From an uncultured Roseivirgaceae bacterium (lineage in GTDB: Bacteria > Bacteroidota > Bacteroidia > Cytophagales > Cyclobacteriaceae): a stretch of DNA of 34,630 nt. Location: the NCBI GenBank assembly GCA_964589185.1, contig CAZPST010000001.1, positions 1-34,630 of the forward strand, in the 5' to 3' direction. Shown here one piece after another: positions 1,357-28,013 of this stretch. The notes beneath the pieces were generated by a model. The model searched no databases and had not been told where the DNA came from. It was given only the letters and a program-made list of their open reading frames with translations. Position numbers and translations under genes: made by a program. Positions within the stretch are counted from its first letter, which is position 1; each line of letters begins with the position of its first letter.

Positions 1357-1375
1357 TAGATAACTTTATAAAAAC

Positions 1376-1410
1376 AAAGGAGTCATTGCTCATCACAGTG
1401 ACTCCTTTTT
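1376..1410 (+). terminator. Rho-independent terminator after the SusE/F-like gene
   Basis: Perfect 10-bp stem AAAGGAGTCA (1376-1385) / TGACTCCTTT (1399-1408) with a 13-nt loop, running into a T-tract (to 1410), 20 nt after the stop codon. Confidence 0.6.
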
Positions 1411-1436
1411 GTTACTACTCATTTAAAGCGAAAGCC

Positions 1437-4586: not shown

Positions 4587-4590
4587 AGGT

Positions 4591-5520
4591 ATGCGGGCTG
4601 TCACGGCTGCCATACTACTGATCTTGCTGGTGATTTCATGTAAAGACGTGAAGTCACCGGCATCATTGGTGCGCTTACCGGATTTCCCATCGCAATTTGT
4701 TCAGCCCAGACACATAGATGTTTGGTTGCCTCCAAATTACCCCACCCAGCAGCAATACCCCGTACTCTATATGCACGATGGGCAAATGCTTTTTGACTCC
4801 ACCACCACATGGAACGGGCAGGAGTGGGGGGTAGATGAGGTTATGGAGCATTTGATTTCGTCGGGGCAAATACGACCGGCCATTGTGGTGGCCATTCATA
4901 ATATCGATTCAATCCGACATGCGAATTATTTTCCACAAAAACCATTTGAATCATTGGCCAAACAGACGCAAGATTCGCTTTACACGTTGGAGCGTTCTCC
5001 GGGGCGTGGTTTATTTGGTGCCAGTGTCGATTCTGACCAATACCTGAGATTCATTGTTGATGAACTCAAGCCATTCATTGATAAAGAATATGCTACCCTA
5101 CCTGACCCAGCGCACACGTTCATCATGGGGTCCAGCATGGGTGGACTGATTTCGATGTATGCCATTTCGGAGTATCCGGAGGTGTTTGGAGGTGCAGCAT
5201 GTCTGAGCACCCATTGGCCGGGCATTTTCACCATGGAGAACAATCCCATTCCAAAAGCATTTTACCAATATGTCTTCACCAATCTGCCTGATCCTGCTAC
5301 GCACAAGCTCTATTTTGACTTTGGAACAGCCACGCTTGATGCGCTCTACGAGCCACTGCAATTGAAAGTGGATTCTATTATTCAATCTCGCGGATACACC
5401 TCCGAGAATTGGATCACACAAAAATTTGAAGGCCATCCGCATGACGAAAAAGCGTGGAGAAGCCGATTGCACATTCCTTTGACATTTCTTCTAAACAAAC
5501 ACCCACATGAAATCAAATAG
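4591..5520 (+). CDS. Putative esterase-family alpha/beta hydrolase lipoprotein
   Basis: Lipoprotein signal with lipobox (LLVISC). Nucleophile elbow GSSMGG. PVLYMHDGQ and HxxD-containing C-terminus as in the esterase D/enterochelin-esterase-like family. Lies 4 nt after the upstream stop. Confidence 0.7.
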   Translation: MRAVTAAILLILLVISCKDVKSPASLVRLPDFPSQFVQPRHIDVWLPPNYPTQQQYPVLYMHDGQMLFDSTTTWNGQEWGVDEVMEHLISSGQIRPAIVVAIHNIDSIRHANYFPQKPFESLAKQTQDSLYTLERSPGRGLFGASVDSDQYLRFIVDELKPFIDKEYATLPDPAHTFIMGSSMGGLISMYAISEYPEVFGGAACLSTHWPGIFTMENNPIPKAFYQYVFTNLPDPATHKLYFDFGTATLDALYEPLQLKVDSIIQSRGYTSENWITQKFEGHPHDEKAWRSRLHIPLTFLLNKHPHEIK

Positions 5521-7360
5521 CCTAGTAGTTTTCCTTCTTTTGGCCTCCTTTGGAGTATTTGCTCAGCCCAAACCTACCCATGTGGAGCCGCCTTTTTGGT
5601 GGGTGGGAATGAACAATCCCGAACTACAACTTATGCTACATGGTACCAATATCTCCACGCTGCAACCTGAATTTGCTTATGAAGGAGTGGAGTTAAACGA
5701 AGTGGTGAAATTGGATAATCCAAATTATTTGGTACTCAACCTGACTATCACTTCAGCAGCCAAGGCAGGCACATTTAAAGTGACCTTGAAGGAAGGCAAG
5801 AAGGTGAAATACGCCTTTGAGTATGAATTGAAAACTAAAAGTGTAGACAACAACCGCAATCTTGGTTTCAACAGCAGTGATGTGATCTACTTGCTCATGC
5901 CTGATCGATTTGCCAATGGCAATCCGGCCAATGACAATGTGAAGGGAATGCTTGAAGGAACGGATAGAAGCAAACCAAATGGACGCCACGGAGGAGATAT
6001 CAAAGGGGTTGCTGACCGATTGGATTACATAAAGGAGTTGGGCATGACGGCCGTATGGCTCACGCCTACGTTCGAAAACGATATGACACCTGAGTATGGA
6101 GCGTATCATGGCTATGCGGCCACTGATCTGTATGCGATGGATCGTCGATTTGGCTCAAATGAGGAGTTTAATGCCTTTGTGCAAAAATGCCATGACATGG
6201 GACTCAAAGTGATTATGGATATGATTCACAATCATGTGGGCGATCAGCATTGGTGGATGAAGGATATGCCCGACAAAGGTTGGGTGCACGATGTGGAACA
6301 ATACGGAATGACTAATTACCGAGGTGTGGTGCAATCGGATCCGTACGCTTCAAAACACGATATGGATCGATTGGTCAAGGGATGGTTTGTGCCATCTATG
6401 CCCGATTTGGATCAGCGTCATCCGGTTTTGGCTACTTACCTAATTCAAAATTCTATTTGGTGGGTGGAATACTCGGGTGTGGACGGCATACGGATGGATA
6501 CGTATGTGTATCCATACAAGGAATACTTGGCGCGATGGGTGAAAGAAGTGATTGATGCCTATCCCAAGTTCAATATAGTGGGCGAAGCATGGGTAGAGGA
6601 AGTGGCACATGAGTCGTATTGGCAGATGGATGCACCCAAAACAGACGGACACAATACCAACTTACCCAGCATCACCGATTTCCAGATCATGTTTGCGCTA
6701 GATCCCGGATTGAATGAAAACATGGGATGGAGAGAGGGATTGAGCAAGTTGTACTATGCTGTTTCGCAGGATAGACTTTACTCAGATCCTATGAAAAACG
6801 TGATTTTCTTGGATAATCACGACACAGAGCGATTTTTCACCCGAATGAATCAAAATCCGAAATTGTTTAAGATGGGGTATGGCTACATTCTGACCACTCG
6901 CGGTATTCCGCAGGTGTATTACGGCACAGAGCTGATGTGGGCTAATGATGACGTGCCGGGAGACGGACGCAAGCGCAAAGACATGCCCGGAGGATGGGCA
7001 GAAGACGAGCGCTCGGTATTTACACAAGAAGGCAGAACAGCCCAAGAGCAAGAGGCATTTGAGTATGTACAAAAGCTGACCAACTGGCGCAAAGGCTCAA
7101 AAGCCATCCATGAAGGCAAAATGACCCATTTCATTCCTGAAAACAACACCTATGTGTATTTCCGCTATACAGATAATGAAGCAGTGATGGTGGTGATGAA
7201 TAAAAATAGCCAGCCTACGAAAATGAATCGCGATCGATTCAAGGAAATATTGGATGGCTACAAAACGGGCGTGCATGTGATGGATGGCAGCACCATTGAT
7301 GTGACAGCCGATTTTGAAGTTGGTCCTATGCAGACGGCTATTTATGAATTAAAGAGGTAA
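5507..7360 (+). CDS. GH13 cyclomaltodextrinase/neopullulanase-like alpha-amylase (SusA-like), periplasmic
   Basis: Signal peptide (LLLASFGVFAQ). N-terminal HVEPPFWWVGM motif of cyclomaltodextrinase N-domains. GH13 regions DMIHNH, GIRMDTYVY, VGEAW, LDNHDTER. Overlaps the esterase gene by 14 nt. Confidence 0.85.
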   Translation: MKSNSLVVFLLLASFGVFAQPKPTHVEPPFWWVGMNNPELQLMLHGTNISTLQPEFAYEGVELNEVVKLDNPNYLVLNLTITSAAKAGTFKVTLKEGKKVKYAFEYELKTKSVDNNRNLGFNSSDVIYLLMPDRFANGNPANDNVKGMLEGTDRSKPNGRHGGDIKGVADRLDYIKELGMTAVWLTPTFENDMTPEYGAYHGYAATDLYAMDRRFGSNEEFNAFVQKCHDMGLKVIMDMIHNHVGDQHWWMKDMPDKGWVHDVEQYGMTNYRGVVQSDPYASKHDMDRLVKGWFVPSMPDLDQRHPVLATYLIQNSIWWVEYSGVDGIRMDTYVYPYKEYLARWVKEVIDAYPKFNIVGEAWVEEVAHESYWQMDAPKTDGHNTNLPSITDFQIMFALDPGLNENMGWREGLSKLYYAVSQDRLYSDPMKNVIFLDNHDTERFFTRMNQNPKLFKMGYGYILTTRGIPQVYYGTELMWANDDVPGDGRKRKDMPGGWAEDERSVFTQEGRTAQEQEAFEYVQKLTNWRKGSKAIHEGKMTHFIPENNTYVYFRYTDNEAVMVVMNKNSQPTKMNRDRFKEILDGYKTGVHVMDGSTIDVTADFEVGPMQTAIYELKR

Positions 7361-7389
7361 TATCGAAAGATTTGTGTAAACAGCTTGGA

Positions 7390-7899
7390 CTAAGACGTGA
7401 TAGCTGCTCTCGGTCCAAGTTCCACCACTTCCAAATTTTTTACTTGACCATCCGCGAGTGAAAACCGAAGTAAGGTTCGCATCTTGTGAAATCCATGCTT
7501 ACCAGCAGCGCCCGGATTCATGAATAGCAGCTTATTCACTTTGTCAGGCTTCACTTGCAAGATGTGTGAATGACCGCAAATGAGAAGATTGGGCTGATAC
7601 TGACGCACATACCTAAGTACGTTAGGATTGTATCGTGGGGGTTGTCCTGCTATATGCGTAATCAAAACGCGCACGCCCTCACGCTCGAAAACTTCTCCTT
7701 CTTTGCAATCCACGCGCAGTGATCCTCCGTCAATGTTTCCAAAAACAGCTAGGGTAGGTTTAAATGCCTTCAATTGTTCCAATACATCTTGGTTCCCGAT
7801 ATCACCGGCATGCCAGATTTCATCTACATCTTTGAAGTAGGTAAATACCTTGGGATCAAGGTAACTGTGCGTGTCTGAGAGTAGGCCAATTCTAGTCAT
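7390..7899 (-). CDS. YfcE/MJ0936-family metallophosphoesterase
   Basis: Metallophosphoesterase motifs in order: SDTH, GD(I), GNID, ITH, GHSH. The 169-aa size is typical of the family. Confidence 0.8.
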   Translation of the reverse strand: MTRIGLLSDTHSYLDPKVFTYFKDVDEIWHAGDIGNQDVLEQLKAFKPTLAVFGNIDGGSLRVDCKEGEVFEREGVRVLITHIAGQPPRYNPNVLRYVRQYQPNLLICGHSHILQVKPDKVNKLLFMNPGAAGKHGFHKMRTLLRFSLADGQVKNLEVVELGPRAAITS

Positions 7900-14757: not shown

Positions 14758-14908
14758 TTTCAGATTTGTAGCGGTTAGACAAGGTTATGGAGAATTGACT
14801 TCACTTGCCCCATTTATTGTGGTTTTTTGCCTAATTTGAAATACAAAGTCATACGCATGGTCTATTGGCTTGTAAGTGGTATTTTTCCGTTTTAAATTGA
14901 GCCTTACC

Positions 14909-15529
14909 GTGGCATTAGGAAGTAACCTCAAAAAACCAGTCAGAGAGAATAAACCCACAACCAAAGTGGTGGAAGCGCATGTGCGTCCTGTCCTACAGGC
15001 GCCCGATCTCGAATATACCCCTGATGTTGACGAAATAGATGAAGCGATAGAAGCCAGAGAGCTTATGTGTGTGTTTCGTGCCGGCACCACCGAATATGCT
15101 ATTCCCATTGCATTGGCAAAGGAAGTAGTGAAGATGAAGCGTTTAGCGCCCATTCCCCAGATGCCCAAACACATCATAGGATTGGCCAATGTGCGTGGCT
15201 CCATATACGGAGTGCTCGATCTACAGACTTTTTTTGGCAATGCATCAGAGGCAGCCGATCAGGGGGTATTTCTATTGGTATTGAATGACGACAAATACAA
15301 AATTTGTGTTTCCATTCCGAGTGTGCCGGATACGCTTTATGTGACCGAATCCATGAGAGAAACCAATGGTGCCACCCAGATCAAAACCATCAAGAAGAGA
15401 GAATTTGTACAGGGAATCATCAAAAAGAACGACCGGTTGATTATTCAGCTTAACATCAAAGAATTGATTGCCAGCCCAAGTTTTGTAAATGAGAAAGAAC
15501 AATCGGCCAATGGCCAAAAAGGACACTAA
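14909..15529 (+). CDS. cheW: CheW-like coupling protein with ~50-aa N-terminal extension (CheW-1)
   Basis: CheW domain ([22 protein letters not shown]...[17 protein letters not shown]...[22 protein letters not shown]). The GTG at 14909 is chosen because it yields M-ALGSNLKK, matching the N-terminus MALGRNLKK of the second CheW at 18812. The exact start is uncertain: the ORF opens at 14876. Confidence 0.75.
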
Positions 15530-15531
15530 TT

Positions 15532-18069
15532 ATGCTTAATAATTTCACCATCCGCAGAAAAATGATGTTGTTCATCTTGGGTGTGACTATCGTGATTTAC
15601 ATAGTTACCCTGGGATACATCAGTTTCAACCTTCGCCAAAATGCAATACAAGAGGCTAAAAATCTGGCTGACGCCTACGCCAGGCAAAAGGCATCTGAGA
15701 TTAAGGCAGTGCTCAATGAAGATATGGCCGTATCTCGTATGATGTCCATGGCCGTGACAGAATATACCGGATTACCCAAGGTGCTGCGCGATAGCCTTCG
15801 AAGAAAATTGCTGGTAAACGTACTAAAAGCATATCCTAAATATGATGCTACTTGGATGAGTTGGGAACTTACGGCTATTGATCCGAAGTGGGATAAAACA
15901 CACGGGCGCGAGCGTACGAATTTCTACATGCGCAATGGACAAGTACAGTCTTCTCAAGAACTAGCCAACCTGGAAGCGGATAATACGAGCGGAATCTACG
16001 TTGAGATGAAGCGAAGAGGATATGTGAAGGATGGTCACGAATTATTGTCTGAGCCCTATTGGTATGAAGATTATGACTACTCTACGGCTTCTGGAGATTC
16101 GCTGTTGGGAGTATCGCCCACAGCTTCTCATTTTCACAAAGGCAAGTTTGCAGGGGTGATAGGCACAGACATGACAGTGAAGTACTTTCAAGATATGTCT
16201 GAGGTGTCTTATAAGCGTGGATTTGCTTTTTTGGTTACAAATCAGGGAACCATCATTGCTCACAAAGACCTTGGCATGTTCAGCAAGCCCATTGATAGTA
16301 TGAGCATGATGAAGGGGCTTGATTTTGATTTGAAATCAGGAATAAAGAAAGGTGAAGTGACTCCATTTGTTACCTATGATGCCAGTTTTGGGGAGGATGT
16401 CTATGTCACGTTTGCGCCTATCAAGGCAGGGCGAACTGATACACCTTGGTCAGCCGGTATCATTGTGCCTGTGTCTGAAATCACCGAGACGTTCGACGGT
16501 ATATTTAAATGGACATTGATGGGGGGAGCCGCCGGATTGATCTTCCTGACGTTCGTAATTGCTCGATTGGCCAATGGCATCACCAATTCACTCGATCGCT
16601 CCAATGCTTTATTGAAGGAATTGGCAAAGGGTAATTTGGATACCTCCAAAAAACTCAGAGTAGAAGGGATAGATGAGCTTAGTCAAATCGCGCATTCGGT
16701 CAATACATTGATGGATGAGTTGAATAAAAAGGCGGAATTTTCCAGAAAAATAGGTGAGGGAAACTTGGTGGCAGATTTCCACAGCTCGGGTGAAAATGAC
16801 GTCTTGGGCGAATCACTCCTGCGCATGCGGGATAACCTGCGCGTGGTAATTGAAGAAACTAAAGAAGCTGTGCAGCAAGCCGGATTTGAAGGAAATCTCT
16901 CTGCACGAATGGATCCTGAAGGTAAAATGGGCGCATGGAAAGACCTTACAGACTCGATGAATAGTCTCTTGGCCTCCATTAGTACACCATTCAATTCCCT
17001 CAATACACTAGTAGATGCCATGGCCGAAGGAGATCTCACGGTACGGTATCGTGAAGACGCTAAAGGGGACATTTTGCAAATGGCCAATAACCTGAACAAA
17101 GCATTGGACAACCTCAATGAACTCTTGGGCGGAATTGTCACAAATGCTAACATCATAGGCGATTCGTCAATGGAAATGCTGGCTGCCAGTGAAGAGATGA
17201 ATACAAATACGGGTGAGATTGCATCAGCGATAGCACAAATGAGTAGTGGTGCGCAAAATCAAGTGAGCAAAGTGGATGAATCGTCCAATCTGGTGGAGAG
17301 TATTTTACGTTCGGCCAATGACATGGGGCATCAGGCCGAAGAGATCAACTCTGCAGCGCAAAAAGGAGCGGAGAGCTCAGACAAAGGACTCAAGATGGTC
17401 AATAAAGTGGGCTTTAGTATGAAAGATATTAGAGCCTTTGCCAATGACACCAACGAGTCCATCAAAGTGCTCACTGAGCGATCCAAAGAGATCACACGCG
17501 TATTGGGTATCATCACAGATATAGCTTCTCAAACGAACCTACTCGCACTAAATGCAGCTATTGAAGCTGCGCAAGCCGGTGATGCAGGTCGTGGATTTGC
17601 GGTAGTAGCCGAAGAAATTCGCAAACTAGCAGAAGACTCGCGCACGTCAGCACGCGAAATCGAAAAGCTCGTGACGGATGTGCAAAACGATACCCAAACC
17701 GCAGCTAAGATGATCGAGGTGATGAGTGATAGTATTAAAGGGGGAGAAACAGCGTCCGTGGATGCATCTGAAGCATTTAAGGAGATTGCCGCATCATCTA
17801 TGCAAACGCTGCAACTCTCAGAGCAAATACTGAATGCGGCCAAAGGCCAAATGGAAAGCATCAAGAATGTGGTGAGCATCACCGAAGGTATCGTGGTGAT
17901 TGCAGAGCAAACAGCCGCCGGAACGGAGGAGGTTGCCAGTTCGGCTACCGAACTATCAGCCGGTATGGAAAACTACACTCAGCGCTCCGAACGAGTGACG
18001 GAAATTGCCACAGAATTGAAAGAACGAGTGGGTAAATTCAAACTGTCAGCAAAACGCGATAGCCAATGA
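15532..18069 (+). CDS. Methyl-accepting chemotaxis protein: TM - dCache-like periplasmic domain - TM - four HAMP units - MA signalling domain
   Basis: TM1 is aa ~12-32. A ~290-aa periplasmic region carries the Cache-like LSEPYWYED motif. TM2 is aa ~326-346. Four HAMP-like units each contain a G(N/D)L motif (AKGNLD, GEGNLV, FEGNLS, AEGDLT). Signalling hairpin is [39 protein letters not shown]. Candidate methylation site is [11 protein letters not shown]. Confidence 0.9.
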
Positions 18070-18812
18070 GTATAGTGGCCATCATCAACCAAAAGGGCGG
18101 TACCGGCAAAACGACCACTACGATTAACCTCGGCAGTGCCTTGGCGAAAAAGTGGAAGAAGGTAACGTTGGTAGACCTAGATCCGCAGGGAAATCTGAGC
18201 TATAGCTTGGGTATCAATGACTCGGAAGGTTCGATGGCCGATGTGTTGCTGGGCGACAAGCAATTAGCTGAAATCCTCATCGATCAGGAAGGTATGCGGG
18301 TGGCACCTGCCAATAATCAACTTGCCGATGCAGAACTGTCCCTAGCTGCGTCTGTCAACAGGGAGCATGTGCTTAAGGATGTGCTCAAGGGACAAAAAGA
18401 CCAAGATTTCGTTCTCATCGATTGTCCGCCTTCGCTTTCGGTACTTACGCTGAATGCCCTGCTGGCCGCTGACCAAGTGATCATACCGATGCAAATGGAG
18501 GTGTTAAGTCTTCAGGGACTAGACCAAATAGTGAATACAATAAATCGTGTGAAGTCGGCTTTCAAAAAGAAACTGAAAATTGCGGGTATTTTGCCTGTCA
18601 TGGTTGACAATCGTAGGAAACTGAGCCAAGAAGTGCACGACTACATTGCAGACAATTATGCCATCCCAATTTTCAAAAGTCAGATACGTGCCAATGTAAA
18701 AGCATCAGAGGCACCCTCGTTTGGCAAGAGTGTCATTGCGTATCAACCACGCTCCGCCAGTGCGCAAGATTATCTTCTTTTCGCAGATGAATTTCTAACC
18801 ATGAATGACTGA
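18066..18812 (+). CDS. ParA/MinD-family ATPase embedded in the che operon (ParC/PpfA-like)
   Basis: Deviant Walker A with signature lysine ([12 protein letters not shown]). DLDPQGN. Walker B-like FVLIDCPPS. 248 aa with no HTH extension. ATGA overlap with the MCP stop. Confidence 0.85.
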
Positions 18813-19528
18813 TGGCACTAGGTAGAAATTTGAAAAAGCAATCGCTCATTCCTGATAAGGAAGATGAAAAGAAAGACACGCCCGTAGCTAAGCCGGTGAA
18901 AGTGGAAAAGAAGAAATTGATTGGCACTAAAGAAAAGTCAAAGCGAGAGCGAAAATCACCGTCATCCTTCACCGGAAGCCTGTTTCATTACATCACAGAG
19001 CAGACATTGGCGCATCGGTCAGCCGTGCGCGAAAAGTACCAATTGGAGATACAGGCACTTGCCGGCAAGTCGGTTCAGTTGATCGTATTTGATGCAGGGA
19101 GTGAGGAATTTGCCGTGGATATCTCATCTGTAAAAGAAGTGATCAGCACGCCCACGATCGCCAAAGTACCCGGCATGCCTACCTACTTCAAAGGCATGAT
19201 TAAGGTGCGAAAGAATACCGTGCTGGTGATGGATTTGGGTGAGAAATTGCGCATCTCTACAGCGGATGAATTTCCGTACACATTGCTTTTGCGCAGTACC
19301 AAGCAGCCGCTCGGCTTGCTCCTGAGAGAACTTCCCCGCACGTTCAAAGTAGACGGTGGGCGAATCACAGGATCGCTACAGGCATTGGAACGTACCTCAA
19401 GAGATGAAATATTTGTCAAGGGACTCGTCAGTTTGAATGAGAAATTGGTTTTCTACCTCGACATAGAGGAATTGGTAAACAGTGACAAGGCAGTAGTGGT
19501 ACCGGATCAATTGGCCAAAAACGAATGA
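18812..19528 (+). CDS. CheW-domain protein with ~90-aa Lys-rich N-terminal extension (ParP-like, CheW-2)
   Basis: C-terminal CheW domain (LIVFDAGSEEFAVDISSVKEVI...YFKGMIKVRKNTVLVMDL...VKGLVSLNEKLVFYLDIEELV). The N-terminus [10 protein letters not shown] is followed by a K/E-rich linker (EDEKKDTPVAKPVKVEKKKLIGTKEKSKRERK). TGATG overlap with the ParA-like gene. Confidence 0.8.
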   Translation: MALGRNLKKQSLIPDKEDEKKDTPVAKPVKVEKKKLIGTKEKSKRERKSPSSFTGSLFHYITEQTLAHRSAVREKYQLEIQALAGKSVQLIVFDAGSEEFAVDISSVKEVISTPTIAKVPGMPTYFKGMIKVRKNTVLVMDLGEKLRISTADEFPYTLLLRSTKQPLGLLLRELPRTFKVDGGRITGSLQALERTSRDEIFVKGLVSLNEKLVFYLDIEELVNSDKAVVVPDQLAKNE

Positions 19529-20562
19529 GCATGAGCAAAAGACGTCTCCAAATATTGGTCGTTGACGATTCTGCATTCATGCGGTTATTGCTCTCTGATT
19601 TGATCTCAGAGGATGATGACCTAGAGGTGGCTGGTTCAGCTACCAATGGCATGGAGGCAGCCGCCAAGGTGGCTGAGTTATCACCAGACGTAGTGCTGCT
19701 CGATCTCAATATGGGAGATTATGATGGGCTGTTTGCCGTGAAAAAAATCATGGCCGAAAAGCCTACACCCATTTTGATTTTGAGCTCAGTGGGCAACACA
19801 GACCTGAATCCCATCTTTGAAGCGTTGAAATTCGGAGCGGTGGACTATATGAACAAGCCCGATCGCAACAACTTCAAAATGCGGACGATGCATTCGGAAC
19901 TGATGAGCAAAATTAAAGCCGCCGCTCGTGCTAAGCCCCGCACACTCCCGGTTACATCTGCACCAAAAAAGGCACTCAGTCGCAAAAAGAAGTCAAATTA
20001 TGATTTACTGGTCATTGGAGCGTCTACAGGAGGGCCTTCAGCCATCGAACAAATCATCACTGACCTACCGGCAGATTTTAATTTACCGGTCATTGTATGC
20101 CAGCACATGCCTACACTTTTCATTACGCCATTTGTCAACAGACTCAATTCGCTCACTGAACTCAATGTGGTCACTGCAGCCAAGTCCATGACGCCAGTGG
20201 CCGGAACGATCATGGTGTGCCCCGGACATGCCAACACGGTGCTGCGCAAATCGGGGAGTCGGTTCGTTGTGGAATTTGACGAGACTGTCTATCGCGAATA
20301 CAACAATCCATCAATCAATGCATTGATGCGAAGTGTGGCCGAAACCTACGGTGAAAAAGCCATAGGTGTGATCCTTACGGGCATGGGCAAAGATGGCGTA
20401 GATGGATTGAAGGCCATTAAAGAAACCGGAGGATACACGATTGCTCAAGACAAGGAGAGTTGTATCATTTACGGCATGCCGAAGGTGGCCGTGGAGCAGG
20501 ATGCGGTGCGTATGTCGCTGGATATCAAAGAAATAGGGGACTATATTGTGAATAATCTCTGA
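19525..20562 (+). CDS. cheB: CheB protein-glutamate methylesterase (REC + methylesterase)
   Basis: REC domain (ILVVDDS...VVLLDLNM...NKP). Methylesterase triad contexts GASTGGP (Ser), CQHMP (His), TGMGKDG (Asp). Confidence 0.9.
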   Translation: MSMSKRRLQILVVDDSAFMRLLLSDLISEDDDLEVAGSATNGMEAAAKVAELSPDVVLLDLNMGDYDGLFAVKKIMAEKPTPILILSSVGNTDLNPIFEALKFGAVDYMNKPDRNNFKMRTMHSELMSKIKAAARAKPRTLPVTSAPKKALSRKKKSNYDLLVIGASTGGPSAIEQIITDLPADFNLPVIVCQHMPTLFITPFVNRLNSLTELNVVTAAKSMTPVAGTIMVCPGHANTVLRKSGSRFVVEFDETVYREYNNPSINALMRSVAETYGEKAIGVILTGMGKDGVDGLKAIKETGGYTIAQDKESCIIYGMPKVAVEQDAVRMSLDIKEIGDYIVNNL

Positions 20563-22259
20563 TGGATTCAAAAGAAGCCGAATATCGCCATCTGTTTCTC
20601 ATGGAAGCCCATGAGAACTACGAGAAGCTCAATAACCTGTTTATTGAGTTAGAAAGAGATCCGTCTAGTCGCAATGCCATCAATGGGATTTTCAGGATTG
20701 TGCACACGCTCAAGGGCAATGCCATGCTCATGGGGTTTGATAAAATTGCCAATCTCACACATACCATGGAGGATGTGTTTGGCGCTTTGAGTGAGAAGAA
20801 AATACTCTTGACAGCCGAACTAATAGAAATACTCTTCCGATGCAACGACAAGTTGGGCGAATTGATAAAATCAATCGAATCAGGAGACAAAGTGAGCTAT
20901 TTAGGCGTGCGCACCAAGCTCTCCGTTTATCTGAAAAATGCCTTGGAAGGGGAAGAAAGTCCTAAAGAAGAGCAGCCACAACCCGAATTTGAAGAAGTCA
21001 TCGTAGAGGAAGCTCCTGCAGAAGATACAGCCGGAATCAGTTTTTCGGATGCTGTGCAGATTCCTATTCGTAAAATGGACGATTTGCTTAATCTGGTAGG
21101 TGAATTAGTCATTGAGCGTGACAGACTGATTGCCGTGTATGGTGCAGAGGGCAAGAGCACATTGGAGTTTGAAGGTTTGAAGCGCATTTCATCCAATCTG
21201 CATTACAGCATAATGAACATTCGGATGGTGCAGATGGGCTTTATGTTCAATAAATTTCATCGAATCCTAAGAGATGCTGCAACCTCTGCAAAGAAGGAAG
21301 TGAAGCTAGTGCTGAAAGGCACAGAGGTCGAAATAGACCGCAATATTCTCAAAATCATCAGCGACTCACTCATTCATTTGGTACGAAACTCGGTAAGCCA
21401 CGGCATTGAGTCAGACGCAGATCGACAGCAGGCCAATAAGCCAAAGGAGGGAACTGTGACGTTGGAAGCCCGACATGAGAAGGACAATGTAGTGCTTACG
21501 GTAACGGATGATGGTCGTGGCATTGATACCCAGAAGATTCGTAAAAAGGTAGTAGAGAAAAAAATGGTGTCGGCAGAAGTAGCCGAAAAGCTGCGTGATC
21601 CGGAAATCATCCGCTACATCTTCGAGCCGGGCTTTTCCAGTGCAGATGCCGTGAGTGAGCTATCGGGAAGAGGCGTGGGAATGGATGTGGTGAAAAGAGC
21701 CGTGGAGTCAATAGGAGGGCAGGTTTTGGTAGATACGGTGCTCGGTCAAGGGACATCTATTCACTTGGTTTTACCATCATCATTGGCACTCAAAGGCGCG
21801 CTTTTGTTTGAAATCGATGAGCAGGAATATGCCATTGCATTGGCGTATATTCAATCCGTCATTTACCTCACCAAGAAGGATATTCACAAGATCAGCAATG
21901 GACTGATGATCAATCACCAAGACGAAACGATCTCCATCGTGTTCTTAAAGGATTTGTTAGAAACACACGACTTGTCTGCCGTGCATGAAGGTAATTTACT
22001 TCATACAGGATATAATAACACACCTGACGATGAGCAATTGAGCGTGATACTCACGACCCATTCCGGTCGCCAGCTGGGGTTAGTCGTGGATCGATTGCAG
22101 CGACAAAAGGAAGTGATTGAGAAAAAATTACCCAAACCACTCGATGGAAGTAAGCTCCTAAGTGGTACTACCATTTTAGGTTCGGGCAATGTGTGTCCTG
22201 TGGTGGATGTGGCATCCGTCATGGACACGCTGTACTTATCAGGCACCCAAGCCGACTGA
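20562..22259 (+). CDS. cheA: CheA histidine kinase (P1-linker-P3-P4-P5; no recognisable P2)
   Basis: Hpt with phospho-His context FRIVHTLKGNA (His48, nt 20703-20705). Acidic linker EGEESPKEEQPQPEFEEVIVEEAPAED. P3 is IPIRKMDDLLNLVGELVIERDRL. P4 N-box is LIHLVRNSVSHGIE, with G-boxes DDGRGID and GRGVGMDVV. C-terminal CheW-like P5. Confidence 0.9.
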   Translation: MDSKEAEYRHLFLMEAHENYEKLNNLFIELERDPSSRNAINGIFRIVHTLKGNAMLMGFDKIANLTHTMEDVFGALSEKKILLTAELIEILFRCNDKLGELIKSIESGDKVSYLGVRTKLSVYLKNALEGEESPKEEQPQPEFEEVIVEEAPAEDTAGISFSDAVQIPIRKMDDLLNLVGELVIERDRLIAVYGAEGKSTLEFEGLKRISSNLHYSIMNIRMVQMGFMFNKFHRILRDAATSAKKEVKLVLKGTEVEIDRNILKIISDSLIHLVRNSVSHGIESDADRQQANKPKEGTVTLEARHEKDNVVLTVTDDGRGIDTQKIRKKVVEKKMVSAEVAEKLRDPEIIRYIFEPGFSSADAVSELSGRGVGMDVVKRAVESIGGQVLVDTVLGQGTSIHLVLPSSLALKGALLFEIDEQEYAIALAYIQSVIYLTKKDIHKISNGLMINHQDETISIVFLKDLLETHDLSAVHEGNLLHTGYNNTPDDEQLSVILTTHSGRQLGLVVDRLQRQKEVIEKKLPKPLDGSKLLSGTTILGSGNVCPVVDVASVMDTLYLSGTQAD

Positions 22260-22262
22260 CCT

Positions 22263-23102
22263 ATGGCGTCCATGGCACCCGATATGATCAGTGATGAAGA
22301 GCTTGCAGCACTCATGCAGGCTATAAACAATCGTTACGGGTTGGATTTCACTAACTATGAGCGCACGTCATTGAAGCGGGGCATAGTCCGGCTGATGATG
22401 AAGCATAAGATGGACACCATCATTGAGTTGTGGTCCAAAGTACTCAAAGATCAAGAGTTCTTTCTGAGTGCCATTGACGATCTGCTCGTAAACCTTACAG
22501 AGCTCTTCCGTAATCCTGACGTATGGATCAAGCTGCGCGATCAAATACTGCCTGATTTTAGAGGGAAAGGTCTGAAAATCTGGCATGCCGGGTGCTCCAC
22601 AGGAGAGGAGGTATACACCATGGCCATTGTACTTGAGGTCACGGGATTGCTGCCAAATGCCCGCTTGACCGCCACAGACCTCAGTTCTACGGCACTGCGA
22701 AAAGCTGTAAAAGGACATTATCCACTGGAGGTATTGAAGCAGTACCTCGTGCCTTTTTTGAAATTTTTCCCCAATCGCAGGCTTGAAGATTACTTTGATT
22801 ATTTCGACAAGCATGCCTTGATCAAATCAAAATACCAGAACAACGTACTTTTCAAAAAGCACAACTTGGTGACTGATCCGATGTATGACAAATTCGATAT
22901 CGTTTTTTGTCGAAATGTGATGATTTACTTTGACGATAAACTAAAGAAACGGGTGCTGGATATGCTCTACAATGGCCTCAAAGAAGGGGGCTATTTGATA
23001 ATAGGATATTATGACATTATGCCGGATTATGGCAAAACATTGTTCGATCTGTATGATGTAAAAACCCGGATTTATAAGAAAAAAGTGAGTGTTAATACCT
23101 AA
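22263..23102 (+). CDS. cheR: CheR protein-glutamate O-methyltransferase
   Basis: N-terminal CheR helical domain (NRYGLDFTNYERTSLKRGI). SAM-binding motif IWHAGCSTGEEVYTMA. FCRNVMIYFD. Confidence 0.9.
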   Translation: MASMAPDMISDEELAALMQAINNRYGLDFTNYERTSLKRGIVRLMMKHKMDTIIELWSKVLKDQEFFLSAIDDLLVNLTELFRNPDVWIKLRDQILPDFRGKGLKIWHAGCSTGEEVYTMAIVLEVTGLLPNARLTATDLSSTALRKAVKGHYPLEVLKQYLVPFLKFFPNRRLEDYFDYFDKHALIKSKYQNNVLFKKHNLVTDPMYDKFDIVFCRNVMIYFDDKLKKRVLDMLYNGLKEGGYLIIGYYDIMPDYGKTLFDLYDVKTRIYKKKVSVNT

Positions 23103-23115
23103 AAAGGAAAGCTAT

Positions 23116-23475
23116 ATGCGCATACTAATAGTTGATGATTCGAGCTATATCAGATCTAGATTGAAGGTGACATTGGAAAATAGCGGTTTTACTGTGATAG
23201 GAATGGCCGAAAATGGAGAGCAGGCCATTGACATGGCCATGGATTTAGGACCCGATATTATTACATTGGATAATATCCTGCCGGACATGACAGGTGTAGA
23301 CGTGCTGAAGGCGCTTAAAGATCACGAAGGTCTTACCAAAATCATCATGATAAGTGCCGTAGGACAGCAATCAGCCATCGCCGAAGGATTAGCCAATGGG
23401 GCAAGTGAGTACATCGTGAAGCCCTTTCAGGACGAAGAATTATTGCAAATCATCAAAAATATCAGCAAAGACTAG
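23116..23475 (+). CDS. cheY: CheY-like single-domain response regulator (CheY-1)
   Basis: ATG at 23116 (MRILIVDDSS). Phospho-acceptor context ITLDNILPDMTG. Ser/Thr (ISAVG). CheY-type aromatic switch and Lys (SEYIVKPF). Confidence 0.85.
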   Translation: MRILIVDDSSYIRSRLKVTLENSGFTVIGMAENGEQAIDMAMDLGPDIITLDNILPDMTGVDVLKALKDHEGLTKIIMISAVGQQSAIAEGLANGASEYIVKPFQDEELLQIIKNISKD

Positions 23476-23555: not shown

Positions 23556-24152
23556 ATGATCTCCAGCTTAAATGAAAACGAAATGAAGGTGGCCAGCAAA
23601 TTGATATTTGATGGTCTTTCTATGGCTAAATCGTCCATGGAGCAAATCCTGCAAAGCCCAATTACTATCCAAAAAATAGATTATAATGATGAAGCTGGCA
23701 TCCATCGCTTTTATGATGGCGGAGAAGGGGATGTGCACCTCATTAAAACTGAATTAATGGGGGAATTAAAGGGCGTCAGTCATTTGATTTTTTCGGCTGA
23801 TGAAGTGGCAAAATTGTACAAAGCGTGCTTGCCCGATCACGTTACTTTTGATGATTCTAATGAGAGTGCCTTGATGAAATTGGGCTTTCTCACAGAGATA
23901 GACAACATGGTGGCAGGAGCGGTCATTACAGAGTTTTCTAATTTCCTTGGCGTAGAGATATATGGTATGGTACCTTCGCTCACAGTAATGCATGCCAATG
24001 AAGTGAATGCCTATTTAGATGCTGAATCCACCGATATGGATTCTGTGATCCATTTCAAAGCTGTTTTTCACGGCAAAGAATTGGATATTTCCCCTGATTT
24101 CGTCTGGGTCTTCCATGATAAATTTGTGGACAAAATCAAGGGACTAGTATAG
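23556..24152 (+). CDS. CheC-family (CheC/FliY/CheX superfamily) CheY-P phosphatase-like protein with one intact and one degenerate site
   Basis: The second half carries a full E-x2-N-x22-P motif (E114-I-D-N117 ... P140 in LTEIDNMVAGAVITEFSNFLGVEIYGMVP). The first half keeps the spacing (E9-x2-V12-x22-P35) but Asn is replaced by Val. The 198-aa size fits CheC. Confidence 0.6.
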   Translation: MISSLNENEMKVASKLIFDGLSMAKSSMEQILQSPITIQKIDYNDEAGIHRFYDGGEGDVHLIKTELMGELKGVSHLIFSADEVAKLYKACLPDHVTFDDSNESALMKLGFLTEIDNMVAGAVITEFSNFLGVEIYGMVPSLTVMHANEVNAYLDAESTDMDSVIHFKAVFHGKELDISPDFVWVFHDKFVDKIKGLV

Positions 24153-24578: not shown

Positions 24579-27185
24579 ATGATCAAAAAATTATACAACC
24601 TGCCGATCCGACAGAAGTTTGCGGTTATTATTTTACCGCTTATTCTTATCGTCTTGGTGTTTGATTATCTTCAAATCAAGCATCATTACGTGGATTTTAA
24701 TGATTCTAAGCGTCTGAATAAGGCCATCACAGTAGGAATTGAAATCAACCATGTAGTACACGAACTTCAGAAAGAACGCAGTATTTCAACAGGTTTTCTT
24801 TCCAATCAAGGAGCCACTTTCAGCGATGAGTTAAACGAACAGCGATCCAAGACAGATAGTACGCTGAATCAATACTATACCGAGATAAGTAGCAAAGCGC
24901 TCAAAGATTTAGTAGGCATTCATCAAGAAGATATTGATCAGTTAAATACCTGGTTTGATAAACTCAAAGTGCTTCGAGCCAATATTGATGCGCACGACAT
25001 CACGTCCGAACTGTCTATCGAGAGCTATTCAGATATCAATAACATGGCACTTAATACTGTCATTCGATTGATTGATGAAACCCGAGACAAGCAAGTGGCA
25101 CAGCAAGTGCACGCTATCATCTATTTTCTGAAAGCCAAAGAGAATGCGAGTATCGAACGAGCCATTGGCACCCAAGCCTTTTCCTTAAGTCATTTGGATT
25201 TTGGGCTATACAACAGATTCACCAGGCTTGTAGCCAATCAAAACTCGTTTTTTGAAGCGTTTCAAATTATTGCGGATGAGGAATCAAATGAGCAATATTC
25301 CACCATCTTGTCAGGTGATGCCGTCTCTGAAGTGAAGCGGATGCGGACGGTTTTGTTTCAAAATGATTCATTAAGTGAAAATGCCGCACATTGGTACGAT
25401 GTGAGCACGGAGCAAATAAATCTTCTTAAAAAACTTGAAGACGCAATGTCTGATCGGATACAATCTCGTACAGAAGATATTGCGATCAGTTCCATGCAAA
25501 AATTCTGGTCATTCTTGGTCTTGGATATTTTGATTGGCATTCTCACATTCTGGTTGATGACCACACTAGCGACCAACTTGCTCAAGAACGTCAAAATACT
25601 TGATGATTTTACAAAGAAAATTTCATCCGGTGATCTCACGCAGAAAGTAGTCATTGACTCGCGGGACGAATTAGGCCAGTATGCCAAAACGTTCAATCAG
25701 ATGGTGTTGGAGATTCGCAAGTCGCACTATGCGTTGCGCCAGCAGCGTGACAAAGCAAAATTTCTTTACGAGAACATCTATCGCGTCTCCATGGTTGTGT
25801 TCGAAAATATCCAGCAGGGTATCTTCTTGTTGGACAAAGAATTTAAAATCTCAAAGTTTCACTCGCGAGCGATGAAGGGCATCTTTGCCAATGACCGCAT
25901 TGCCGGTGAGAATTTCGCCAACTTCATGCGTCCACTCATTTTGCCACGCGAGTTAGAGGCACTTGAGATGTTTATGCGGCACTTGTTCAATGAGGACATG
26001 GATGAGGACGTGGTGAATCAGTTGAATCCGATTGATCAAGTGAAAATCCACACCGAACAAAACGGCGTGGTGGCCACCAAGTACATCCGCGTGGATTTCA
26101 CACGCGTGTATCGTCAGGATAAAATCCAGCATGTAATGGTGACCGTGTCTGACGAGACTGAATCTATCCTATTGCAGCAGCATCTGGATGAAGCAGAGAA
26201 GAAGAAGCAGCAAGAAACCGAGCGTGTACTCAGCATCCTCAAAATCGACCCATCCATTTTGCGTGGTTTCCTTCACAATTCGCGAAAAATGCTGAAGAGT
26301 ATTTCGCAGCGATATGAGCAGCACGACAAAGGTGATTTCGATGAATTGCTCAGTTTTACCATGGACATTATTCATAACCTAAAAGGAAATGCGGTAGTGA
26401 TAGGCATGGATTTGATGTCGAATAAATTCCATGAAATTGAGGAGACCATCACCCAATTGAAATCGCGTCAACTTCGTGGAAAGGACTTTTTGGCTGTGTT
26501 GTATGAAATAGATGAGGCCGATCGAATGATTGCCGATATTTCAGAAATGCTCTACAAGATTGTCAGCATTTACAAGAAATTTCCTGCTGAGGGTCATTCC
26601 GTATCCAATATAATGGTGGTGGACGCACTTGAACGTGGGGCAGAGCTCATCAGCAAAGAGGTAGGGAAAAATGTGGAGGTCAACTTCAAAAACGATAAGA
26701 ACCTCTCGATACCTGAAAAATACGTGGAGCCATTCAAGGATGTCATGATCCAACTCATTCGAAATTCGATCATTCACGGGATCGAAACGCCAAGTGCACG
26801 AATCACGGCCGGTAAGGTGATCAAAGGTGAAATTGGTATTGAATTGGACAAAACAGCTTCCGATGATTTGGTGATTCGCTACCACGATGATGGAGCCGGT
26901 TTGGATTTGCAAGAGATCAAAGTAAAAGCATTAGATAGGGGTATTGTGATGGGCTTTGAGCTAGAGAAGATGTCGGATCAAGAGCTGGTAGAATTGATTT
27001 TCTTGGAAGGATTCTCTACATCTGAAAAATCAAATAAGCATGCCGGTCGTGGACAAGGGATGCACCTCGTGAAATCAATTGTAGCAGACCATGGTGGCAC
27101 ATACGCATTGACCTACGAAAAAGGAAAGTCATTTGGTATTACCATTACATTCCCAAGTACAGGTGAAAAGCTGGAGCAAGAATGA
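24579..27185 (+). CDS. Membrane sensor kinase: TM - NIT (nitrate/nitrite-sensing-type) domain - TM - HAMP - PAS-like region - Hpt - CheA-type HATPase; no P3 or P5
   Basis: TM1 is aa ~13-30. The NIT-type periplasmic helical domain (aa ~45-295) has the hallmark HELQKERSISTGFLS plus ENASIERAIG. TM2 is aa ~309-331. HAMP is aa ~332-385 (SSGDLTQKVVIDSRDELGQYAKTFNQM). PAS-like region is aa ~395-530. Hpt is aa ~555-650 with CheA-P1-like IIHNLKGNA (His599, nt 26373-26375). The catalytic domain is co-linear with the CheA in this window (MIQLIRNSIIHGIE; HDDGAGLD; GRGQGMHLVKSIVADHGG). Confidence 0.8.
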   Translation: MIKKLYNLPIRQKFAVIILPLILIVLVFDYLQIKHHYVDFNDSKRLNKAITVGIEINHVVHELQKERSISTGFLSNQGATFSDELNEQRSKTDSTLNQYYTEISSKALKDLVGIHQEDIDQLNTWFDKLKVLRANIDAHDITSELSIESYSDINNMALNTVIRLIDETRDKQVAQQVHAIIYFLKAKENASIERAIGTQAFSLSHLDFGLYNRFTRLVANQNSFFEAFQIIADEESNEQYSTILSGDAVSEVKRMRTVLFQNDSLSENAAHWYDVSTEQINLLKKLEDAMSDRIQSRTEDIAISSMQKFWSFLVLDILIGILTFWLMTTLATNLLKNVKILDDFTKKISSGDLTQKVVIDSRDELGQYAKTFNQMVLEIRKSHYALRQQRDKAKFLYENIYRVSMVVFENIQQGIFLLDKEFKISKFHSRAMKGIFANDRIAGENFANFMRPLILPRELEALEMFMRHLFNEDMDEDVVNQLNPIDQVKIHTEQNGVVATKYIRVDFTRVYRQDKIQHVMVTVSDETESILLQQHLDEAEKKKQQETERVLSILKIDPSILRGFLHNSRKMLKSISQRYEQHDKGDFDELLSFTMDIIHNLKGNAVVIGMDLMSNKFHEIEETITQLKSRQLRGKDFLAVLYEIDEADRMIADISEMLYKIVSIYKKFPAEGHSVSNIMVVDALERGAELISKEVGKNVEVNFKNDKNLSIPEKYVEPFKDVMIQLIRNSIIHGIETPSARITAGKVIKGEIGIELDKTASDDLVIRYHDDGAGLDLQEIKVKALDRGIVMGFELEKMSDQELVELIFLEGFSTSEKSNKHAGRGQGMHLVKSIVADHGGTYALTYEKGKSFGITITFPSTGEKLEQE

Positions 27186-27556
27186 AAAAGCGCCTTCTCA
27201 TAGTAGATGACTCCTCTATCATGAGGAGAACCATAGAAAAGAATCTAGCCGAGTATGATTTAGAGATCATCGGTCAGGCATCAAATGGCAAAGAGGCATT
27301 GGAGATGGTGAAAAAGGAAATGCCCGATGTGATTACACTGGATATCACCATGCCTGAAATGAACGGTATAGAGTGTTTGGAAGGAATCATGAAAATTCAT
27401 CCTACGTGTAAGGTGATGATCATCACGGCACTCTCGGATAAGTTGACCGGTTTGATAGCCTTAGATAGGGGAGCTAGGGGTTTTTTGTACAAGCCTGTGA
27501 GTGCGGAGGATTTGGAGCGATCGTTCAATAAATTATTGAAGCGAAATGGAGAGTAG
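27182..27556 (+). CDS. cheY: CheY-like single-domain response regulator (CheY-3)
   Basis: LLIVDDSS; canonical ITLDITMPEMNG; ITALS; GFLYKPV. ATGA overlap with the kinase stop. Confidence 0.85.
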   Translation: MKKRLLIVDDSSIMRRTIEKNLAEYDLEIIGQASNGKEALEMVKKEMPDVITLDITMPEMNGIECLEGIMKIHPTCKVMIITALSDKLTGLIALDRGARGFLYKPVSAEDLERSFNKLLKRNGE

Positions 27557-28013
27557 AAAGGAGGAGTTCGAAGCTACATGCAATTTGTTCATCAATTCGG
27601 TGAATAATTATTTCAAGCATCTCACTGAGATTGATTCCAATATTAAGGTGCCATACCTCAAAGAATCTCAGGGATTGGTGCTCAAGGATTATACAGGCAT
27701 GATTGCCATTTCTGGCAGCCGAAAGGGCTTTGTATATATCTCTGCCAATCGAGACATGTTTGGTGATTTGATCCACATGTTTATCGGCATTGAAGATCCG
27801 TCTGACGAGGATATTTTGGACATGGCCGGTGAAATATCCAATGTGGTGGCAGGTAATGTGCGTGCCAATTTGGGTGCGAATTTTATGATTTCCGTACCCA
27901 TTGTATTTGAAGGTATGCCTTCCGAATTGAAAATACCGGAAGATATTTCAATTTACGTGATACCGATCCAATGGAACAACCATGAGGCTTTTGTTGTATT
28001 AGGATTAGAATAG
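27546..28013 (+). CDS. cheX: CheX-like CheY-P phosphatase
   Basis: 155 aa with a single D-x3-E-x2-N site (D92-MAG-E96-IS-N99 in LDMAGEISNVVAGNV) followed by P118. Size and single-site layout fit CheX rather than CheC. 11-nt overlap with CheY-3. Confidence 0.65.
   Translation: MESRKEEFEATCNLFINSVNNYFKHLTEIDSNIKVPYLKESQGLVLKDYTGMIAISGSRKGFVYISANRDMFGDLIHMFIGIEDPSDEDILDMAGEISNVVAGNVRANLGANFMISVPIVFEGMPSELKIPEDISIYVIPIQWNNHEAFVVLGLE

Follow-up and report, generated by a model that had tools for sequence, protein, structure and literature searches.

We analysed a 34,630-nt stretch of DNA from an uncultured Roseivirgaceae bacterium (Bacteroidota, Cytophagales; contig CAZPST010000001.1, positions 1 to 34,630), called the window in the following, which contains a chemosensory (che) operon with a gene for a ParA/MinD-family ATPase. 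Directly downstream of the ATPase gene lies the gene of a CheW-domain protein, CheW2, which begins with a conserved peptide of 14 residues, MALGxNLKKxxLIP, the tag. The tag was found to be conserved at the protein level, to be associated with the ATPase gene, and to occur on two different protein scaffolds, and the ATPase has kept its catalytic residues as well as most residues of the pocket that binds ParB in chromosomal ParA proteins. We regard it as probable that the tag of CheW2 docks onto this dedicated ATPase and that the chemosensory array is thereby tethered or positioned.

The operon consists of co-oriented genes in the order CheW1, methyl-accepting chemotaxis protein (MCP), ParA-like ATPase, CheW2, CheB, CheA, CheR, and CheY. 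A sequence-only reading of this DNA had described the ATPase gene as translationally coupled to the MCP gene as well as to the CheW2 gene, and overlaps were found on both sides: the MCP stop codon and the ATPase start codon share the sequence ATGA, the ATPase stop codon and the CheW2 start codon share the sequence TGATG, and the deviant Walker A motif KGGTGKTT is present. All features claimed in that reading were confirmed to be present at their coordinates. The features of the first part of the operon are as follows:

14909..15529, + strand: CheW1, 206 amino acids, GTG start; CheW domain in residues 54-189 (Pfam PF01584, E = 7.7e-23)
14909..14935, + strand: N-terminal half-tag of CheW1, (M)ALGSNLKK, translated from the GTG
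15532..18069, + strand: MCP, a transmembrane chemoreceptor of the dCache-HAMP-MCPsignal type (Pfam); untagged
18066..18812, + strand: che-linked ParA/MinD-family ATPase, 248 amino acids (Pfam AAA_31, 1.9e-53; CbiA)
18093..18116, + strand: deviant Walker A motif KGGTGKTT of the ATPase, in the region of residues 8-17
18812..19528, + strand: CheW2, 238 amino acids
18812..18853, + strand: N-terminal 14-residue tag of CheW2, the proposed ParA-docking motif
18854..19075, + strand: Lys-rich linker of CheW2, residues 15-88, hypervariable, with a conserved, predicted helix in its C-terminal part
19076..19528, + strand: C-terminal CheW-like domain of CheW2, residues 89-225 (Pfam PF01584, E = 9.7e-23), which would integrate into the array

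The MCP contains two hydrophobic segments (about residues 12-30 and 329-347) that are predicted to span the membrane, and the array formed by this receptor is the likely cargo. For comparison, che loci were fetched from genomes and metagenome contigs and annotated with the window proteins as queries (these loci carry L numbers). The synteny of the operon was retained in L001, L004, and about 30 genome loci.

The N-terminal tag of CheW2 and the half-tag of CheW1

The N-termini of CheW2 (MALGRNLKK) and of CheW1 translated from the GTG at 14909 (MALGSNLKK) are identical at 8 of 9 positions, whereas the CheW domains of the two proteins share only 29% identity. The near-identity of the two nonapeptides had been noted in the sequence-only reading, as had the underlying codon differences at synonymous positions (tta/cta, gga/ggt, aac/aat, ctc/ttg, and aaa/aag), and both were found as described. 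A degenerate DNA pattern for the nonapeptide matched the window twice, exactly at these two starts, and did not match any of 100 dinucleotide-preserving shuffles. On CheW2, the conserved element is longer than the nine residues that had been proposed, and comprises 14 residues.

Besides the window protein, only eight relatives of CheW2 were present in a collection of 5.8 billion proteins. In the resulting alignment of nine sequences, which reaches down to 31% identity, M1, A2, L3, G4, N6, K8, K9, L12, I13, and P14 did not vary. When one genome per species was scanned, a CheW2-type protein was retrieved from about 30 genomes of Cytophagales (Ekhidna, Marinoscillum, Reichenbachiella, Cyclobacteriaceae, and Roseivirgaceae). 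Among 40 distinct DNA versions of the CheW2 start, positions 1-4, 6, and 8 were invariant, and positions 7 (38 L, 2 I), 9 (38 K, 2 R), 12 (38 L), and 13 (35 I, 3 L, 2 A) were nearly so, while position 14 was P in 25 versions, S in eight, and A in four. The codons of these residues varied freely: six codons each were used for Leu3, Leu7, and Leu12, and four each for Ala2 and Gly4. Variation of the synonymous codons together with fixed amino acids indicates that selection acts on the peptide and not on the RNA, and the earlier claim that the peptide is kept at the protein level was thus substantiated. Position 5, in contrast, was K in 26, G in eight, R in four, and Q in two of the 40 versions. 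A basic residue at this place, as implied by the analogy with the ParB peptide GLG(K/R)GL, is therefore not conserved, as K, R, G, Q, N, D, T, S, or E were found at this position in the family.

The tag is followed by a linker that is hypervariable and rich in Lys, Pro, Glu, and Ala, and that covers 60-190 residues in the nine-sequence alignment. Its length is mostly 54-194 residues (median about 100), 26% of its residues are Lys or Arg, and some versions resemble histone H1. In the window, the N-terminal extension of CheW2 had been described as Lys/Glu-rich and about 90 residues long; it comprises 88 residues with 16 Lys, 5 Arg, 8 Glu, and 3 Asp, and thus has a net charge of +10. The last part of the extension, directly preceding the CheW domain (residues 55-88, nt 18974-19075), contains three residues that were invariant in the nine-sequence alignment (R69, E79, and K86), and residues 63-81 were predicted to be helical within an otherwise poor AlphaFold2 model. 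ParP, the CheW-like partner of the ATPase ParC, is reported to dimerise via its N-terminal part. By analogy, CheW2 could dimerise through this helix, so that two tags would be brought together for the two sites of a ParA dimer.

For CheW1, 19 distinct DNA versions yielded the consensus M/V-A-L-G-x-N-[LI]-[K/T]-K, with 11 K and 7 T at position 8. The start codon was ATG in 15 of the 19 versions and GTG in the clade of the window. An upstream in-frame start was missing in 11 of the 15 listed loci with an ATG start, and L004 contains an in-frame TGA three codons upstream. The starts of the orthologues and the TGA codon of L004 support the proposal that the GTG at 14909 is the conserved start of CheW1. 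The GTG at 14876 was considered as an alternative start and was rejected, because the resulting extension (VVFFRFKLS...) is closed by a stop codon in L004 and is absent from most other loci. In the closest relatives this extension is open, and in two orthologues gene callers had selected the equivalent upstream start.

The extensions of the two paralogues have opposite charges: residues 1-52 of CheW1 (52 amino acids, linker at 14936-15067) have a net charge of -4, compared with +10 for residues 1-88 of CheW2. In soluble MCPs that also carry the tag (see below), the linkers are neutral or acidic and rich in Thr, Asn, and Glu. Thus, linker charge is not part of the conserved signal. The claim that both CheW paralogues are tagged has to be divided: CheW2 carries the full 14-residue motif, whereas CheW1 carries half of it and has lost this half in several lineages.

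Association of the tag with the ParA-like ATPase

The association of the tag with the ATPase was quantified at 59 distinct ParA genes of the che type whose downstream gene could be read, drawn from Cytophagales, one Chitinophaga metagenome-assembled genome (MAG), and unassigned metagenome contigs. In 56 of the 59 cases, the gene directly after the ParA gene started with the tag (M-A-L-G-x-N-[LI]-K-K-x-x-L-I-P); in eight of the 56, the start of the open reading frame (ORF) had been called a few codons too far upstream. The spacing between the ParA gene and CheW2-type genes ranged from -14 to +18 nt and was mostly 0-7 nt. A metagenome-wide scan that started from the tag pattern gave 26 matches. 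Sixteen were true ORF starts directly downstream of a ParA-like gene, nine were short or internal chance ORFs without a ParA gene nearby, and one was a true start without an upstream ParA gene (L103). Because the scan returned only che-linked true starts in addition to the nine obvious chance matches, the possibility that the tag is a general N-terminus of Bacteroidota proteins was rejected. Conversely, 39 che loci of Nitrospirota, Desulfobacterota, Magnetococcales, and other groups, which had been fetched with a CheW-domain pattern, contained neither a ParA-like gene nor the tag.

The tag is not confined to CheW2. In eight loci (L038, L080, L087, L097, L104, and L109-L111), including the Chitinophaga MAG (L038) and Pontibacter sp. 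SGAir0037 (L080), it forms the N-terminus of a chemoreceptor encoded directly after the ParA gene; examples of such starts are MALGKNLKKESVLP, MALGKNLKLSKDKLIS, and MALGDNLKKAKLIPNG. These receptors are PAS-MCP or poly-HAMP-MCP proteins without a hydrophobic segment and are therefore taken to be soluble. A plain CheW protein of 166-177 amino acids without an extension is encoded downstream of them. The presence of the same tag on CheW2 and on receptors that are not CheW proteins shows that the tag follows the ATPase and not the CheW fold.

Two further loci carry the tag without a ParA gene next to it. In L039, the PAS protein encoded at 4424-7558 starts with MALGGNLKKEKLMP, and its gene is located in a truncated MCP-CheW-CheY-CheB cluster that is followed by clpB. 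In L103, a PAS protein that starts with MALGDNIKKDQLIP extends from position 1779 to the end of the oriented locus. The respective ATPases may be encoded elsewhere in these two genomes.

The signature Lys and the Asp and Gln of motif 2 place the ATPase of the window within the ParA/MinD superfamily, and the catalytic residues K10, K15, D39, and Q41 were invariant in 144 relatives. The best relatives of known structure were ParA of Myxococcus xanthus (8RAY, 9.4e-54), a mycobacterial ParA-like protein (4PFS), and the Soj proteins of Thermus and Helicobacter pylori. NCBIfam contained no specific family for the ATPase; all matches were below the cut-offs, the best being ParA_partition with 115 bits versus a threshold of 180. 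A C-terminal amphipathic membrane-targeting helix of the MinD/FlhG type was not found, as the protein ends at residue 248, level with the end of the Soj/ParA core. In this respect, the ATPase is ParA-like and not MinD-like.

In M. xanthus, L11, R13, L15, L18, and I19 of ParB bind to a ParA pocket formed by V116, L150, L152, L155, L187, and L192; R13 is read by Y81, E82, D110, and E117, and DNA binding of ParA requires R238 (PMC12462528). These positions were mapped onto the window protein and 144 members of its family. Five of the six pocket positions are hydrophobic: L91 is L or I in 141 of 144, L124 is Leu in all 144, L129 is V, I, or L in 143 of 144, V126 is L, V, I, or M (T in nine of 144), and F166 is F, L, Y, I, or V. 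The equivalent of R238, K212 in the window, is K or R in 137 of the 144 relatives and may serve DNA binding. In contrast, the equivalents of Y81 and E117, which have been described as invariant in chromosomal ParAs (PMC12462528), are A58 and S92 in the window; in the 144 relatives they are A/G/S/T/C/V and S/N/T/A/G/V, respectively, and never aromatic or acidic. The consistent replacement of the residues that read R13 matches the lack of constraint at position 5 of the tag.

The ATPase is not a canonical chromosomal Soj/ParA protein, as indicated by the absence of Tyr81 and Glu117, by the KGGTGKT-type nearest clusters, and by the four sampled neighbourhoods that were readable, all of them che-linked. 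In an exhaustive search of 1.84 billion representatives, nearly all of the about 25 nearest clusters (at least 43% identity) had KGGTGKT and lacked the Tyr/Glu pair, and canonical ParAs with KGGVGKT and Y..E appeared only below about 207 bits. A rough neighbour-joining tree contained a split of 34 clusters around the window protein that was free of canonical ParAs, but the exact membership was recovered in only 7 of 50 bootstrap replicates. As the tree was weakly supported, we relied on the residue signature alone, and the comparison with ParC and PpfA was based on architecture and diagnostic residues.

All four nearest representatives with readable neighbourhoods were che-linked. At 54% and 51% ParA identity, the partner still carried the tag. 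At 49% (L112), the partner is a PAS-MCP of 1398 amino acids that starts with MAKRRNNQQKSIF, and at 48% (L113, pocket EQQIEL), the partner starts with MALGNNLGGPQM. The change of the partner peptide at 48-49% ParA identity indicates that ATPase and partner peptide diverge together. The PAS-MCP in the region 6001-10961 of L112 (GCA_016775155.1, JAEUGD010000042.1) starts with MAKRRNNQQKSIFNEMGG, a different basic N-terminal peptide, and looks like part of a sister system with a tag of its own.

Proposed mechanism, alternatives, and known systems

Taken together, these features point to the following mechanism. The ParA-like protein would be an active ParA/MinD-type ATPase that is dedicated to the chemosensory array and not to DNA segregation. 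CheW2 would be the cargo adaptor: its C-terminal CheW domain would sit in the lattice of transmembrane receptors and CheA, and its flexible Lys-rich linker would present MALGxNLKKxxLIP. We infer that the tag binds physically to the ATP-bound ParA dimer, most likely at the hydrophobic dimer-edge pocket in which chromosomal ParAs accommodate the L-G-R/K-G-L-x-x-L-I peptide of ParB. Docking would tether the array and would probably stimulate ATP hydrolysis, and the array would thereby be positioned or partitioned on the matrix of the ATPase. We favour the nucleoid as the matrix, since a basic residue occupies the position of the DNA-binding Arg and a membrane-targeting helix is lacking; alternatively, a polar anchor as in Vibrio may be used. 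The half-tag of CheW1 would provide an accessory, weaker, or modulating contact.

Several observations weigh against this mechanism or limit its support. Most loci came into the sample by way of the tag or of CheW2. Look-ups that started from the ParA protein were few: of eight, the full tag was seen in four, a partial tag in one, and a different peptide in one, and two were uninformative; the contigs of two representative ParAs (P0145 and P0150) were too short to show the partners. L039 and L103 contain tag-bearing PAS proteins or receptors without an adjoining ParA gene. The sixth pocket position, L187 in M. xanthus ParA, is K, Q, or R in the che-ParA family. L12 and I13 of the tag are two residues further from L7 than the corresponding pair in ParB, and four residues further in Pontibacter, so that the tag cannot copy the ParB helix exactly. 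An AlphaFold2 model of CheW2 based on the nine-sequence alignment had a mean predicted local distance difference test score of 39 and was unusable. Lastly, CheW1 shares only the first nine residues with CheW2 and lacks L12-I13-P14, its position 8 is often Thr, and the half-tag is missing from about nine loci (mostly of the Marinoscillum type and a few others). The notion of two equivalent adaptors is therefore weaker than the proposal for CheW2.

Three other explanations were considered. The tag could bind the ATPase while the ATPase acts as a regulator of assembly or stoichiometry, which sequesters CheW2 or soluble receptors or gates their entry into the lattice in an ATP-dependent manner. 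Such a role would suit a second, divergent adaptor like CheW2, with 29% identity to CheW1; divergent CheW proteins that tune the plasticity of arrays are known (FrzB, PMC6952110), and ParP promotes array formation in addition to localisation (PMC5706961). However, the che-linked ParA-like ATPases that have been studied, ParC and PpfA, all affect localisation or partitioning (PMC11407121), and the conserved basic residue at the DNA-binding position also speaks against a purely regulatory function, which we consider unlikely. A different possibility is that the tag and the Lys-rich linker bind a target other than ParA, either nucleoid DNA directly or the membrane, and that the neighbouring ATPase acts independently. 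A precedent is the positively charged N-terminal tail of FrzCD, which binds the nucleoid without a ParA protein (PMC5716589), and the high Lys/Arg content and partial resemblance to histone H1 of CheW2 linkers would be in line with it. Nevertheless, binding of DNA by a basic tail requires neither an invariant M-A-L-G-x-N-L nor conserved Leu, Ile, and Pro residues; the tag is fixed while the linker is hypervariable, CheW1 and the MCP-type partners are tagged despite acidic or neutral linkers, and the tag co-occurs with the ParA gene. This explanation thus has a very low probability in our view.

It was also considered that the shared N-terminus reflects translation initiation or another mRNA feature, or that it is an inert relic of the common origin of the two CheW proteins. 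Both genes begin in tight coupling or behind a short leader, and, to our knowledge, Bacteroidota are not reliant on Shine-Dalgarno pairing, which was counted in its favour. Conservation at the mRNA level was rejected on the basis of the codon diversity, as synonymous sites are free and amino acids are fixed across the 40 DNA versions. Furthermore, the same peptide occurs on non-homologous MCPs, and the contrast between 8 of 9 identical residues in the nonapeptides and 29% identity in the CheW domains does not fit a relic. We therefore give this explanation hardly any credence.

Among characterised systems, the window most closely recalls two, and by analogy it would work like ParC/ParP, while some of its relatives would work like PpfA/TlpT. 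ParC and ParP mediate polar positioning in Vibrio and Pseudomonas; as in the window, a ParA-like gene is located in the che operon, parB is absent, and the receptors are membrane-bound. In ParP, a ParC-interaction domain at the N-terminus is followed by a Pro-rich linker and a CheW-like AIF domain (PMC5706961), and CheW2 has the same order of an N-terminal interaction element (residues 1-14), a long linker (15-88), and a CheW-like domain (89-225). The systems differ in that the linker of CheW2 is rich in Lys where that of ParP is rich in Pro, the element proposed for the interaction is a defined linear motif of 14 residues, CheW1 is present as a second adaptor with a half-motif, and the host belongs to the Bacteroidota (Cytophagales), for which gliding without flagella has been described (PMC6767994). 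EFExLLD repeats in CheA have been associated with ParC/ParP (bioRxiv 10.1101/2025.10.27.684771). The window CheA contains no match to an EFExLLD/LID-type repeat but only EFEEVIV and EFEGLKR. The suggestion that the ParC/ParP logic extends to a non-proteobacterial lineage was supported in part: the ParP-like architecture and the TlpT-like relatives agree with it, while the CheA repeats are absent. In a published survey, Reichenbachiella faecimaris was scored as having no ParC (ParC = 0) and two ATPases of unknown type; the genus Reichenbachiella carries the che-ParA family of the window.

In Rhodobacter sphaeroides, PpfA and TlpT partition cytoplasmic arrays on the nucleoid, and the N-terminus of TlpT engages PpfA (PMC5706961, citing Roberts 2012). 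Here too, the ParA-like gene lies in the che operon, and a basic residue equivalent to the DNA-binding Arg is kept in the window family. The arrangement with the tag on a soluble receptor next to the ATPase is found in Pontibacter, the Chitinophaga MAG, and several metagenome contigs. In the window, by contrast, the tagged partners are CheW adaptors, and the receptor of the operon is transmembrane, with two membrane segments, and untagged. ParA-like genes in che operons had been reported for 77 of 206 species, and no Bacteroidetes were listed among the 77 with PpfA homologues (PMC2829493).

The resemblance to chromosomal ParA-ParB systems (M. xanthus, Bacillus subtilis, H. pylori, and Thermus thermophilus) concerns the first half of the tag, in which L-G-(K/R)-x-L matches L11-x-R13-x-L15 of ParB (PMC12462528, PMC11229316), as well as the best solved relative of the ATPase and the five hydrophobic pocket positions. 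On the other hand, the che operon contains neither a ParB-like gene (CTPase/helix-turn-helix) nor parS, and the neighbours of the ATPase are an MCP and a CheW-domain protein. Y81 and E117 are never present, the central residue of the tag need not be basic, N6, K8, and K9 are newly invariant, and the second hydrophobic pair lies two residues further on and precedes a Pro. More generally, partners of ParA/MinD ATPases use charged, disordered N-termini (PMC10241942). McdA/McdB and the rule of an N-terminal "luggage tag" are similar in that a cargo-bound partner engages its own ATPase with a short, charged, disordered N-terminal peptide, while its remaining part attaches to the cargo (PMC10241942, PMC11407121); in the che systems, however, the cargo is the chemoreceptor lattice, and related lineages carry the tag on two unrelated scaffolds. 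The Frz system of M. xanthus (FrzCD tail, FrzB) likewise belongs to a gliding bacterium, comprises two CheW-like proteins, and has an array component with a basic N-terminal region (PMC5716589, PMC6952110), but it involves direct DNA binding without a ParA protein, whereas the window encodes a dedicated ATPase and a fixed motif.

A more far-reaching version of the docking mechanism is possible, though we find it doubtful. The tag would be a transferable luggage tag derived from ParB, which by itself specifies binding to che-ParAs and has moved between CheW adaptors of membrane arrays and soluble receptors of cytoplasmic arrays. The window would then encode a two-tier tether, made up of the full tag on CheW2 and the half-tag on CheW1, of which one tier would bind and activate the ATPase and the other would bind weakly or compete, and transmembrane arrays would be spaced along the nucleoid of long, gliding, non-flagellated cells. 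If this were true, it would represent a nucleoid-ParA mechanism that acts on membrane cargo.

Surroundings of the operon and significance

The operon is completed by genes that follow CheW2, and a promoter-like box precedes CheW1:

19525..23475, + strand: cheB-cheA-cheR-cheY, the co-oriented, overlapping remainder of the operon (Pfam)
14890..14902, + strand: promoter-like box TTTTAAATTGAGC; its end lies about 8 nt before the CheW1 start

The box TTTTAAATTGAGC is kept in the window (14890-14909), L001 (6071-6090), and L004 (1419-1438), and the Ekhidna version is TTTTACCTTGAG. In sequence it resembles the -7 promoter element of Bacteroidota (TAnnTTG). If it is a promoter, almost no leader would precede the coding region at the 5' end of the operon mRNA, and the start codon would be GTG in the clade of the window.

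Beyond CheY, genes follow for a protein of 198 amino acids, a second CheY, a kinase with the architecture NIT-HAMP-Hpt-HATPase, a REC protein, and CheX. The 198-aa protein (23556-24152), located between the two CheY genes, has a sub-threshold match to CheC (E = 0.0097) and was kept in almost every related locus long enough to include this region (MI..LNENE.KVA.KLIFDGLSMAKSSMEQ). Judged by this similarity, it could be a phosphatase of the CheC/CheX class or a switch-like component. The kinase (24579-27185, 868 amino acids) contains a NIT sensor, a HAMP domain, a weak Hpt match, and a HATPase domain; it is CheA-like in phmmer searches (about 84 bits), lacks a CheW-like P5 domain, and is followed by the REC protein (27182-27556) and CheX (27546-28013). 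The trio of kinase, REC protein, and CheX was retained downstream of the operon in almost every related locus of sufficient extent and may, from its domain content, be a second branch with a receptor-fused kinase.

In several Ekhidna loci (L013-L016, L019, L021, and L025), one or two extra MCPs of about 715-745 amino acids and unassigned DNA are inserted between the first MCP gene and the ParA gene, and the ParA-CheW2 junction is intact in these loci. In L001, a 151-kb ENA contig, genes for a TrwC relaxase, a TraG-like protein, and a tyrosine integrase (1-5258; an integrative conjugative element) adjoin the orthologous operon, and a rhodanese gene immediately upstream of the operon is common to L001 and the window. 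The window has a GC content of 44.5%, encodes an amylase with the C-terminal tail of type IX secretion, and has its closest relatives in metagenomes, which points to an uncultured lineage of Cytophagales in the vicinity of the Reichenbachiellaceae. Members of the Reichenbachiellaceae are flexible thread-like or rod-shaped cells that glide and lack flagella (PMC6767994).

The underlying principle of cargo positioning is already established by ParC/ParP and PpfA/TlpT. New are the lineage, an explicit 14-residue motif with a ParB-like first half, its presence on two unrelated scaffolds, the half-tag of CheW1, and the correlated loss of the site that reads Arg. In the literature, we found no description of che-linked ParAs in Bacteroidota, and in the publications found on ParC/ParP and PpfA/TlpT, the element that binds the ATPase is not presented as a short sequence motif. 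Although che operons commonly contain ParA-like genes, only these two systems, both from Proteobacteria, have been studied.

A motif with clear invariant positions is open to synthesis, mutation, and modelling, and cultured hosts are available in Ekhidna lutea DSM 19307, Marinoscillum furvescens DSM 4134, and Pontibacter sp. SGAir0037. The findings would place array positioning in the Bacteroidota, for which che systems, and what they control in gliding cells, have hardly been studied. The relatives form a natural domain-swap series, in which the motif, and not the scaffold, accompanies the ATPase, and at the family level the ATPase has lost its Arg-reading site and the peptide its central basic residue, two losses that are linked. 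Together, the motif, the domain-swap series, and this paired loss of site and residue bear on the question of how coexisting ParA systems avoid cross-talk.

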